A stretch of DNA of 63,999 nt, filler included, from Albugo candida (Eukaryota): the NCBI GenBank assembly GCA_040437565.1. It is 37 parts of 37 records of this genome, joined end to end, with 100 filler letters (N's around TTAATTAATTAA, not from the genome) between each part and the next. Parts side by side here need not be neighbours in the genome. Positions count along the whole stretch, not along the records: positions 16,053 to 17,725 come from JBDOQK010000444.1; 36 more parts are not named here. The stretch is one strand, 5' to 3'. A program made the translations under genes and the position numbers. Shown here in pieces: positions 14,279-60,810 of this stretch; the stretch's first letter is position 1; every line of letters begins with the position of its first letter. The notes under the pieces were generated by a model that was not told the origin of the DNA, searched no databases, and saw only the letters and a program-made list of their open reading frames with translations.

Positions 14279-14448
14279 ATTATCTAATTATTACCACCGT
14301 CTCACTTATGCAACCTGATATCCATGGGTCAAGTATATTTTATATATATACTTAGACATAATATTCATTTTAATAAAGATCCATACTTTTTCACGACCGA
14401 TTGAATTTTCCGTTTATTTTACTTTTATTTATATTACTGAATTTAACA
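14279..14448 (+). repeat. 3' part of a 5' LTR (TATA, AATAAA, ends in CA)
   Basis: TATATATA near 14341, AATAAA at 14372-14377, ends TTAACA at 14448, followed by T7 and then gag. Confidence 0.65.
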
Positions 14449-14547
14449 TTTTTTTCAATCAGGTTTCAAAACCCTTGAATTACATATCTTTATTATTTTG
14501 AAAATTTTTTTTACACACACACTTTACTTGATTATTACTCACCTGCA

Positions 14548-16052: not shown

Positions 16053-17489
16053 ACCAGAAACACGCATCATCCCAAAACGACCATTAAAGCGGCGACTTTC
16101 TTCAGCAGCAGCAAGAGCGGCAGGATCACAAACATGGCGAGAGTTAAATCCCGGAGCACCACACTTAAAACAATGCCCTTTAGGATACCAAGGACGTTTT
16201 CCAGCAGCACGATCTTGACTACCACCACCAACAGAAGAAGAAGCACCATCAGCCACAGGAGAAGAAGCAGTCACAGAAGCATTCAACAAAGCGGCATTCC
16301 CACGAGACAAAACTTGACAATCTTCAGTGTTGTGCTTGTCACGCCCATGTACTTCACAAAAAGCACCAACCATACCATGAGCACGAGATTTCCCCTTCTT
16401 GTTACGACTACCAGTAGATGACACAGCAGAAGGAACAGCATGAGCATACCTCGACTTGTTCGTAGAATGATGAAGATCATTATGAGAACTACTACGAGAA
16501 GAAGAAGCAACCCCAGAAGACGAAGAAGAAGAAGAACCCATAGGTAGAGAAGAGGCAGGCACAGACCCAGGAACAGAAGACATACCACCATCATACAAAT
16601 CATCGTACAACTTCTTGGCCAAGTTAGTGACCGCATCGACATTCAACTTGTCAACAGTAGCCATGTTAGCTTTAGACACAACCACCTTTTCACGAAGAGC
16701 ACGAGGAAGAGCACGCAAAAACTTGTCAATCAGAACAGAAGAAGGCGACACCTGGTCGACAGCACGACGACGAAGATCATTAAAACGATCAATGAAATTG
16801 ACCAAAGATTCACCGTTATTCATAACAATGTTCACCAATTCCACAGCACAAGCAGCACGATCTTCATCCACTGTACGACCATAACGACTCGTAATAGCAG
16901 TCTTGAAATCAGCCCACGTAGGAGGAGCTACCTTGACATCGTACTGAACAACGAATTGTTCATACCAAGTACGTTGAGAGTCAGAAAGTAACTGGGGCAC
17001 CAAACGCAAAAAATCAGCATCCAAATCCAAACCATGTGCCAACAACACATCTTCAAACTTGCGCAAACAAGCAGAGACATCAACACAAACAGAAGCAGAG
17101 TGATCAAAAATTGCATTTTCCCACTGAAAGAGAGGCAAATTACGGGGACAAACATTTGACTGTTGCTTGACAACAGGAGCAGCAACCGGGGCAACAACAG
17201 GAACAACAGGATTAGTAGCAGAAACAACCCTTTGAAGACGAAGCACCGAGACAGACAACCTTTCTGTACTTGTTTCCAGTTCGACATACCTTTCACTAAG
17301 TTCAATACGGGCCTCAGGAGTCAACGAAGCATCATCTAACTTGACAGCAATAGACGAAGTTTCACCAGAGTTACGTTCGATCAAAGCCAACAACTCAGCA
17401 ATAGATTCAGCAAGAGACTTAGGAACAGAATCAACTTCCATGGCATTAGAAGAAGAACCAGAGTTAGAGTTACCAGAAGGAGTAGACAT
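16053..17489 (-). mobile_element. Gag of an LTR retrotransposon related to 14548 (partial)
   Basis: CPRNLPLFQW, TWADFK, ESLVNFIDRF, FLRALP, CEVHGRDKHNTEDC and CFKCGAPGFNSRHVC. Confidence 0.9.
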
Positions 17490-17557
17490 TTTAAGGTAAG
17501 TAAAAAAAATAGAGTAGATAGAATAAAAGTAAATAAGCTTGGCTTGATTAAAAAAAG

Positions 17558-17725
17558 TGTTGTATATTTTAAATAAAAATACACAATAAAAAAATTAATA
17601 AAAAAACACAAGTAGAAAAGTAAATCAAAATAAGTAATCAGCTATGCTGGTAGGAAATAAAGATATATTCAGAATGAATTAACCCTTTTACTTTTATTCA
17701 AATAAGACACATATATATAGTAGTT
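17558..17725 (-). repeat. 3' part of a 5' LTR
   Basis: Minus strand: TATATATA near 17715, AATAAA at 17693-17698, AATATA at 17664-17669, ends CAACA at 17558, then C-T7. Confidence 0.65.
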
Positions 17726-19593: not shown

Positions 19594-19722
19594 AAGACCT
19601 ATAAATCAATCACTTTCGAATCCTCCCTCAAGTGAGCAAGTGTTCTCTGCTTCGTTCTCTCCGGTCTCTCCGCTTCGTTTTCTCTTCGCCTCGCGCTCAA
19701 GTTACAACAGGTTATGAGCCCA
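19594..19722 (+). promoter_or_regulatory. Copia 5' LTR end (to 19709) and primer-binding site
   Basis: LTR ends ACAACA at 19709, immediately followed by GGTTATGAGCCCA, matching the copia-type GGTTATGGGCCCA site for internal tRNA-iMet priming. Confidence 0.85.
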
Positions 19723-42203: not shown

Positions 42204-42360
42204 GAGATCACCCGAGTGGATACTCCAAAAAAAAAAAAAAAAAAAAAAAAGATCGGATTAAGATCTTTGTTTGATCCCAGCATGCATATGCTTCCTGTCA
42301 AAGCCACACGTTCACTAATAAAATGTTGTGAGTTTCTGATTTATCTGCTGTTTACCATTG
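42204..42360 (+). repeat. Duplicate of 60548-60710 (contig-end overlap)
   Basis: Identical sequence except for an A24 versus A30 run. Confidence 0.95.
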
Positions 42361-43810: not shown

Positions 43811-44013
43811 NNNNNNNNNNNNNNNNNNNNNNNNNNNNNNNNNNNNNNNNNNNNTTAATTAATTAANNNNNNNNNNNNNNNNNNNNNNNNNNNNNNNNNN
43901 NNNNNNNNNNTATCATTGCCATCCACTCACTCGTCAGCATCAACATGCTACAATGTCGATGTCTGCGCAATGGAGAAGGACGACAGGAGAAAGCCTTCGA
44001 CGCCGAGGAAAGG

Positions 44014-44034
44014 TGCCGCGACCCGGGATCGAAA

Positions 44035-44079
<45 letters not shown>

Positions 44080-44086
44080 CCGAGGC
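44014..44086 (-). tRNA. tRNA-Phe(GAA), possibly defective
   Basis: GCCTCGGTAGCTCAGTTGGGAGAGCG-TCAGA CT GAA GA TCTGA; one acceptor-stem mismatch and G53->T in the T-stem. Confidence 0.85.
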
Positions 44087-45126: not shown

Positions 45127-45199
45127 TATCGGAGGAGGGGATCGAACCCTCGATCTTGAGCGTGTTAAGCTCACGTCCTAACCACTAGACGACACCGAC
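45127..45199 (-). tRNA. tRNA-Val(AAC)
   Basis: GTCGGTGTCGTCTAGTGGTTAGGACG-TGAGC TT AAC AC GCTCA..GAGGG TTCGATC CCCTC. Confidence 0.9.
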
Positions 45200-48739: not shown

Positions 48740-48920
48740 TCTCGGCGAGACCTCCAATGATAAGTTTGCGGTGCTTGTTGTGAAATGTGTTGTAGCGATA
48801 TTGTTCCCTTAAGATGATAATCCGAGACAAGTTATCAAATTAAAGTATTATTTAATAAATGTATATATATTAAAATTGAGTAAATCTTCTTATCGTTGTT
48901 CTTCTCAAAAATATCCTTCA
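48740..48920 (-). promoter_or_regulatory. 5' LTR end (48758) and tRNA-Gln primer-binding site (48740-48756)
   Basis: Minus strand TTATCA-T-TGGAGGTCTCGCCGAGA; its complement TCTCGGCGAGACCTCCA resembles eukaryotic tRNA-Gln 3' ends. Confidence 0.85.
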
Positions 48921-60220: not shown

Positions 60221-60569
60221 TATCATACTAATAAATACTTCCACCTCTTTTACCGTACAATAAAAGTAAAGAAAAAATGCTTATTTTGATTGATTACCTA
60301 TTTTTTACGTACTTTAAACTGCTCACAATCTCAGATCTTTTATGTGTGTTATGAAACCTTATATTCTATTGGTATATCATTATCCCATTCCATTGTTTTA
60401 TTTTTCGAATGACACTATTCGTAACTGTAACAATCAAACTCAAAATGTCTCACTTTTGCGGGAAAACGTAGCAATCAGCTAATACATCTTTTCGATGACA
60501 TGCAAGCGAAATCCAATTAAATAGTCATTTCTTCATCAAACAACGTTGAGATCACCCGAGTGGATACTC

Positions 60570-60602
<33 letters not shown>

Positions 60603-60810
60603 TCGGATTAAGATCTTTGTTTGATCCCAGCATGCATATGCTTCCTGTCAAAGCCACACGTTCACTAATAAAATGTTGTGAGTTTCTGATTTATCTGCTG
60701 TTTACCATTGNNNNNNNNNNNNNNNNNNNNNNNNNNNNNNNNNNNNNNNNNNNNTTAATTAATTAANNNNNNNNNNNNNNNNNNNNNNNNNNNNNNNNNN
60801 NNNNNNNNNN

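Follow-up and report, generated by a model that had tools for sequence, protein, structure and literature searches.

A thymine tract followed by a complement of the element's own LTR in a chromodomain Ty3/gypsy lineage: possible priming by the polyadenylated 3' end of the element

Introduction

How does an LTR retrotransposon begin its minus strand when a run of thymines stands where the tRNA primer-binding site (PBS) is expected? The question is raised by a truncated element on the minus strand of a stretch of 63,999 nucleotides, filler included, of the Albugo candida assembly GCA_040437565.1, which is called the window below (for general LTR anatomy, see the sections on it in PMC3601003 and PMC4007536). 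A preliminary description of the locus had seen seven thymines past the LTR end, followed by letters able to form a short duplex, with one bulged A, with the LTR itself. It took this for a conserved priming structure in one lineage, shared with a second element whose LTR ends at 14448. The structure has stood up: it recurs in a reverse transcriptase (RT) clade and changes with the LTR of each element. That it serves priming is what we infer. Our preferred reading, to which we give a probability of roughly 0.55 from sequence comparison, is that minus-strand synthesis starts from the 3' end of the element's RNA, annealed together with its poly(A) tail to the U-tract.

Results

The window element and its relatives

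The window comprises 37 mutually unrelated contigs of 1.5 to 1.7 kb with 100-base N-TTAATTAATTAA-N spacers at the joints; since the contigs are merely joined by spacers, neighbours in the window are not linked. The window element lies on the contig at 16053-17725 (C444), where the minus strand reads LTR end, short leader and gag ORF, and the 14448 element sits on a separate contig (C443). Their parts are as follows.

17558-17725, minus: last 168 nt of the 5' LTR, ending in CAACA; 17725 is the contig end
17711-17720, minus: TATA-like run 21 nt ahead of AATAAA, a putative promoter
17693-17698, minus: AATAAA, the probable poly(A) signal, kept in relatives C841, C5932 and C2339
17687-17699, minus: 5' arm of a 13-bp helix able to hide AATAAA by pairing with the leader
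17659-17687, minus: predicted 29-nt hairpin in the interval from AATAAA to the partner, including AATATA; a similar hairpin is predicted in C841
17639-17649, minus: small competing hairpin CAGC-ATA-GCTG, which takes up the partner's 5' half; no letter differs in C841 or C112
17635-17642, minus: the partner, GCTGATT/A, proposed last letters of the RNA, with a putative poly(A) site and the tail from the A at 17635
17559-17587, minus: predicted U5-terminal hairpin, immediately ahead of the C-T7 tract
17550-17557, minus: C and T7 where a tRNA PBS is expected, the proposed pairing site of the poly(A) tail
17542-17549, minus: AATCAAGC, complement of the partner with one unpaired A
17521-17533, minus: leader arm of the 13-bp helix, which exists only downstream of the 5' LTR
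16053-17489, minus: gag ORF, truncated by the contig end, with a Retrotrans_gag domain and a CX2CX8HXC knuckle
14279-14462, plus: junction of the 14448 element, with AATAAA at 14372-14377, partner end at 14403, LTR end at 14448, T7 and CAATCAGG

At 17542-17669, a Ty3/gypsy element from a chromodomain-bearing group passes from its 5' LTR into the leader. The LTR has TG...CA ends with gag downstream, and the gag product matches PF03732 with 37.6 bits, above the cut-off. The LTR end at 17558 is set by other copies, C824 matching query positions 1-170 at 100% and C140 positions 46-168 at 99%, both of which diverge immediately past CAACA; the copy on C824 gives a whole LTR of 452 bp, TGTTG...CAACA. 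The window contig stops within gag. Relatives at 39-42% gag identity carry the RT, RNase H, integrase and chromodomain families, the long ones in a single gag-pol ORF of 1597-1745 aa, and the chromodomain (PF00385) is found in 3/3 of these, in a region before which the window copy ends. A decayed copy with 76% DNA identity to the window element (C112) has an RT that falls in the same clade. The full LTR on C824 (L003, 340-791) shows neither an upstream purine tract nor a matching target-site duplication, and five public relatives differ from it in that their 3' LTR lies 1-3 bases past a G-rich tract.

Named protein relatives come from Mucor, Circinella, Rhizopus, Lichtheimia, Absidia and Entomortierella. 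The gag and LTR matches of the window element come only from contigs numbered 112 or higher, and GC content averages 43% at the large-contig loci sampled, compared with 28-42% at the element loci. It looks as though AT-rich Mucorales-like contigs were assembled together with an oomycete-like main genome, and we therefore take the host of the element from its protein relatives.

Anatomy of the junction

Read on the minus strand, CAACA (17562-17558) is followed by C (17557), T7 (17556-17550) and AATCAAGC (17549-17542). The partner in the LTR, GCTGATTA, lies at 17642-17635, its perfect Watson-Crick core being TGATT (17640-17636), with AATATA (17669-17664) 21 nt ahead of it. These positions agree with the preliminary description, as do the geometry of the 14448 element, whose LTR end is set by copies C1765 and C872, and the presence of P.xLP.xQW and CX2CX8HXC in both window Gags.

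Beside the T-tract, U5-terminal hairpins with differing letters are predicted in the window (17559-17587, minus) and in L011, L024, L085, L086 and L092; by analogy with the U5 stem of Tf1, the hairpin may help initiation. L011 also carries, at ~290-440 on its minus strand (C381), a palindromic insertion of ~150 bp flanked by two copies of one LTR piece, which resembles a miniature inverted-repeat element with a long duplication.

A T-tract shared by one RT clade

Junctions were read upstream of related gag genes, with anchors set by eye, at 12 loci of the same genome and on 6 public contigs (L083, L085, L086, L091, L092 and L188). T6-8 stands directly past CA in 18/18, three of them with one C between, and the LTR end is set by another LTR copy in 6 of the 18. 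Sixteen had sufficient LTR for the pairing test, C549 and C159 showing the T-tract with too little LTR; among the 16, the C separating CA from the tract is confined to the window element and two close relatives. L196, which is in the clade and has no LTR pair, was left out, as were L084, L087, L089, L090, L093 and L197, which come without a 5' junction. The gag-pol of L196 (3731-8438) is read in two overlapping frames on a contig of 82 kb that was binned as bacterial, which suggests contamination or a domesticated copy.

The T-tract elements with readable RT fall within one clade (41/60 rows, SH-aLRT 100; 102/150 rows, 97), apart from the chromodomain elements of fish, plants and Penicillium in quick trees with a midpoint root and with Tf1 itself absent. 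No TGG site was found within a few bases of the LTR end in T-tract elements. TGG sites are present in out-of-clade elements with resolved LTR pairs (L225-227, L229, L235, L240, L246 and L250) and, by eye, at several AT-rich gypsy junctions of the same genome. The preliminary description had offered two window elements with ordinary tRNA sites as an internal contrast, and this applies to one of them: the gypsy at 48740 has TGG, and the copia at 19710 (plus) has GGTTATGAGCCC instead, which we take to resemble a half-tRNA-Met site. The latter sequence occurs 139 times in the assembly against once for the control, and no tRNA gene was found at the 10 of these 139 loci examined. The copia probably belongs to another organism in the mixed assembly; its nearest Atlas cluster is mostly oomycete, which is a lead only.

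Other sequences were noted alongside. The AT-rich gypsy leader at ~540-700 of L067 (C279) has no clear TGG or T-tract and holds several CACGTGAC/TCACCTGAC repeats; it is possibly another non-tRNA primer type. Genes for tRNA-Phe and tRNA-Val lie at 44012-44086 and 45127-45199 of the window (minus), on one contig, with an 82-bp direct repeat.

The bare pattern CAACA-T7 occurs at 48 sites genome-wide, against 27 for the control. Among the 47 examined, the only clear gag-bearing junction is at C381, already in the set, and the 39 sites with enough flank served as chance controls. A repeated TATGGTGC...CCAACA-T7 motif (L031, L034, L036, L042, L044, L047, L164 and L165) is probably the end of a DNA transposon family; sites of this type sit among the chance controls and are mutually non-independent.

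Pairing of the letters past the T-tract

Pairing was scored as the best match within the last 150 nt of the LTR, anchored at the first letter past the T-tract. In 16/16 testable junctions the LTR of the same element holds a site to which these letters pair, 5-7 of them as an exact complement. The p values of single elements range from 0.005 to 0.41, and that of the window element alone is 0.065 (200 shuffles). Jointly, the pairing beats every shuffle: ten representatives with different PBS reach a summed score of 184, compared with a shuffle mean of 99.5 (0/500 shuffles reach it), and the sum for all 15 elements in the set at that stage is reached by 0/300. The chance CAACA-T7 sites (n=39) have a mean of 10.7 against 17.5 for the elements (p=0.0003), with 4/39 scoring 20, above most elements.

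A mismatch matrix with sites chosen by each element's own PBS is circular, and it was superseded by a choice of site from AATAAA alone, 15-35 nt past it; this range, like an 18-32 nt one, was picked after inspection of the data. With the site so chosen, the own PBS gives a perfect 5-bp match in 8/10 and a foreign PBS in 2/90 cells (0/100000 permutations), the two misses being the window element and L083. L188, which was added once the rule was fixed, shows T6, seven perfect pairs and then A, 26 nt past AATAAA (23/500 shuffles). L092, a GC-richer and distant relative, also follows the rule and forms the strongest duplex; it has AATATA directly ahead of its partner and no AATAAA.

The duplexes share further traits. 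An A stands directly past the partner in 15/16 (9/10 representatives, 3.2 expected), and the sequence is then usually U-rich, with a U share of 0.40-0.68. The core is pure Watson-Crick over at least 5 pairs in 10/10 representatives, compared with 30% of comparable shuffled hits. In 12/16 the perfect run halts where an A of the PBS stands opposite a C of the LTR (8/11 representatives, 1.9 expected), and pairing resumes past a bulged A in 7/16. The bulged A reported earlier therefore holds as a recurring unpaired A; as a bulge with resumed pairing it fits those seven only, A facing C being the commoner form. The T-tract and perfect run total 12-13 in 14/16, a constancy that we dropped as evidence because it is near chance level once five pairs are required (10/11 against 7.7 expected, P=0.05, not clearly beyond chance). 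The feature is beyond chance as a trait of the lineage and not at the single locus.

The poly(A) signal and the leader helix

AATATA, the signal favoured in the preliminary description, did not survive comparison of copies: it is absent from C841 and C112 and lies inside a hairpin stem. AATAAA at 17698-17693, kept in C841, C5932 and C2339 and not found in the decayed copy C112, is the likelier signal, and use of this more distant motif would leave the priming idea standing. AAUAAA is the main signal in Rhizophagus (Mucoromycota), at 56.7% of sites (PMC10234402). Published gaps from signal to site are 15 nt in animals (start at -21, in fungi too) and 17-18 nt in plants (PMC4360255), and a poly(A) site is marked by an A at the site, U-rich flanks and an upstream AAUAAA (PMC4360255, with further support in the pertinent part of PMC3111234).

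In the elements studied here, the gap from AATAAA to the partner is 20-30 nt in 10/16 and 43, 55 and 57 nt in three, and the remaining three have no AATAAA within reach. A hairpin of ~29 nt is predicted within the gap in both the 55 and the 57 nt cases; that of the window element, which misses the 15-35 nt test and so needs the hairpin under priming by its own 3' end, would shorten the gap from 57 to ~28 nt. That a gap of 20-30 nt exceeds the published 15-18 nt is the main objection to such priming, since a canonical cut would fall at the 5' side of the partner and leave the partner outside the RNA 3' end. Long A-runs in the window and at loci of the same genome number seven, none usable to calibrate the gap; the one with AATAAA is the element's own antisense T-run. 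Genomic copies of the partner followed by A5 gave 4 matches against 4 for the control, none with LTR upstream. A repeat found identically on two contigs, at 42204-42360 and 60548-60710 of the window, carries CC, then 24-30 A and a fixed downstream sequence.

A 13-bp helix can form between AATAAA with its flank and the leader at 17533-17521 (p=0.003, 1000 leader shuffles). The 14448 element has such pairing with other letters (p=0.004), and in C841 one A and the matching T are both lost, a compensating 1-nt indel (p=0.04). For nine representatives the combined p is 0.0014, the helix not being significant singly in 9/12 elements. The pairing suggests that AATAAA is transcribed, hence 5' of the partner. 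From the helix we infer that early polyadenylation is blocked at the 5' LTR and that the partner is not the RNA 5' end; where both motifs were found, the partner end lies 54-84 nt past the TATA-like run.

Discussion

Priming by the element's own 3' end

In the preferred reading, transcription would start just ahead of AATAAA, and the 3' LTR copy would be cut and polyadenylated at the 3' end of the partner (17635 in LTR terms). The last letters of R and 6-8 A of the tail would pair with the U-tract and the letters past it, as a duplex of 12-13 bp, and the 3' hydroxyl would be supplied either by trimming of the tail as far as the duplex or by the tail's terminal As, the remainder being looped out. 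RT would then copy U5 and R, and the first strand transfer would take place as the new DNA folds back on the adjacent 3' R within the same RNA. At the 5' LTR, the leader helix would hide AATAAA and prevent early polyadenylation. With the primer remnant copied during plus-strand synthesis, the T-tract and the complement would be written anew in every cycle, which would account for their co-variation.

Several observations favour this reading over others. The partner is followed in the genome by just 0-3 As, too few for the LTR itself to pair with the T-tract, and a tail starting there would complete the duplex up to the LTR boundary. An added A tail lowers the duplex energy by 5.7-7.5 kcal/mol in 15/15 tested, and without it the duplex reaches only -4.7 to -9.8 kcal/mol in 13/15. 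Priming by the own 3' end is favoured by the A at the site, the U-rich flanks, the upstream AAUAAA and the complement beyond the T-tract. The single C between LTR and tract is compatible with it if integrase trims the C. Cis pairing is open to the partner's 5' copy, with a probability of at least 0.74 in 9/15 folds, and would be expected to compete; in the predicted fold of the window element the 5' duplex copy is absent (probability 0.02), because the CAGC-ATA-GCTG hairpin occupies half of the partner. Taken from its sequence, the T-tract element would work like a self-priming element.

Two other primers were considered and rejected: a host tRNA on account of PBS letters that differ by family and track the own LTR, and a primer made by splicing for lack of GT past the partner and of an A6-8 run downstream in the LTR.

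Alternative explanations

The alternatives are taken in descending order of probability. It is rather unlikely that the elements prime in the manner of Tf1, in which case the partner in the 5' LTR would pair with the PBS, RNase H would cut just past it and the freed end would be extended, with the U-tract as a spacer. LTR-derived self-priming is established for Tf1 by the account in PMC7175516 and predicted for 83% of plant Tcn1 elements in the figures given by Neumann et al. (PMC6317226). The cis duplex is favoured in 9/15 folds, and core plus outer pairs span ~8-14 nt, close to the 11 nt used by Tf1. A spacer, however, gives no reason for a pure T6-8 in 18/18, the cDNA end would be 6-9 bases too long, and without a tail the duplex is weak in 13/15 (-4.7 to -9.8 kcal/mol). 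The partner, lying past AATAAA and 54-84 nt past the TATA-like run, is an unlikely RNA 5' end, and a poly(A) site at or before it would leave no R for strand transfer. The RT clade is also separate from the fish, plant and ascomycete chromodomain elements.

Quite unlikely, in our view, is an arrangement in which the partner lies in the 5' U5 and forms a cis helix with the PBS, while the last As of the tail, unjoined to the partner, stack on that helix along the U-tract and prime. It is consistent with the canonical gap of 15-18 nt (PMC4360255) and requires no tail trimming, and the folds offer both the cis helix (9/15) and a mostly unpaired U-tract (0.44-0.88). It leaves unexplained, however, why the distance from AATAAA to the partner is fixed while the interval from the partner to the LTR end ranges between 38 and 87 nt, and why the core is pure Watson-Crick over at least 5 pairs in 10/10 representatives against 30% of shuffled hits; in the window element the cis helix is disfavoured (0.02).

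That the pairing is regulatory only seems improbable. The duplex and the AATAAA-leader helix would then hide the cleavage site of the 5' LTR, and an oligoadenylated host RNA, a protein or something else would be the primer. The helix does point to a leader shaped, in some elements, for pairing with the poly(A) region, but the letters past the T-tract differ by family and follow the own LTR, which a shared host primer would not bring about, and pairing begins exactly at the first letter past the tract. Chance pairing in AT-rich DNA, which the single-element p values (0.005 to 0.41) and the 4/39 chance sites scoring 20 might suggest, is very improbable in view of the joint shuffle and permutation tests, the excess of A facing C (8/11 against 1.9) and the fit of L188.

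Implications

If priming by the own polyadenylated end is correct, LTR elements would have a third way to prime, next to tRNA and Tf1-type 5' priming, one needing neither a tRNA nor a near-cap cut, and host polyadenylation and tail length would be tied directly to retrotransposon replication. The rule we offer, to skip the T-tract and find the next 5-7 letters matched at the element's own probable poly(A) site, predicts the exact primer for any such element. More tentatively, and at somewhat less than even odds, we suggest that this way of priming extends through an entire gypsy lineage, reaching from Mucorales to soil eukaryotes and perhaps to Skipper of Dictyostelium as well, with the T-tract as a copy of the tail renewed in each cycle and the first transfer as a fold-back within one molecule. 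In the literature covered, which was mostly open-access and may miss an earlier description, we found no proposal of priming by an element's own polyadenylated end and no account of such a tract in Mucorales. In their passages on these elements, Spaller et al. 2016 (PMC5006619) leave initiation of the Skipper type unsettled, and Novikova et al. 2010 (PMC2864245) that of the T-rich Tcn1.

Comparison with known systems

Retroviral 5' LTRs have a helix that hides AAUAAA, and in HTLV-1 the distance between AAUAAA and the cut site is bridged by a stem-loop. Viruses with such occlusion prime with tRNA; in the elements described here, by contrast, the arm that hides the signal belongs to the leader and is found past the PBS.

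Tf1, Tf2, Tj1 and Tosmo, of the Tf1/sushi type, are similar in using no tRNA, in a PBS that pairs with the own LTR and in a chromodomain integrase, and in Tf1 RNase H releases the primer, consisting of the RNA's first 11 nt, from a structure of three duplexes, as set out in the relevant parts of PMC7175516, PMC4600332 and bioRxiv 2022.12.06.519325. Measured against that description of Tf1, the complement in our elements instead lies past AATAAA, and T6-8 that the LTR cannot pair separates the LTR from it. The T-tract RTs do not group with the fungal and vertebrate chromoviruses of the Tf1/sushi type in our quick, midpoint-rooted trees with fish, plant and Penicillium elements. SM-Tcn1 of Selaginella is a chromodomain gypsy with a conserved thymine-rich sequence past the 5' LTR and no known primer in the section describing it (Novikova et al. 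2010, PMC2864245); it differs in that the Tcn1 clade is near Tf1/sushi, and the likeness is drawn from the published description.

The closest resemblance is to Skipper-1 and -2 of dictyostelids and Protostelium, which by the published description are Ty3/gypsy elements with a chromodomain past the integrase (PMC5006619). Both groups have no TGG and a pyrimidine tract right past the left LTR, found here in 18/18; the C beside the tract described for Skipper may have a counterpart in the C that the window element and two close relatives show here. In their account of Skipper, Spaller et al. report no LTR complement and a tract known from no other organisms, leave priming unexplained, and regard the C adjoining the tract as speaking against simple poly(A) priming (PMC5006619). 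In our elements, by contrast, the complement appears once the T-tract is skipped. Skipper-1 further differs, as described there, in having two ORFs and a CX2CX4HX4C knuckle, as opposed to the one gag-pol ORF of the relatives and the CX2CX8HXC of the window Gags, and no protein named as dictyostelid was among the 120 matches listed in either of two protein searches. The feature described here is a lineage-wide trait of a clade of LTR elements that is not tRNA-primed, falls outside the Tf1/sushi type in our trees and resembles Skipper by description without being filed there.
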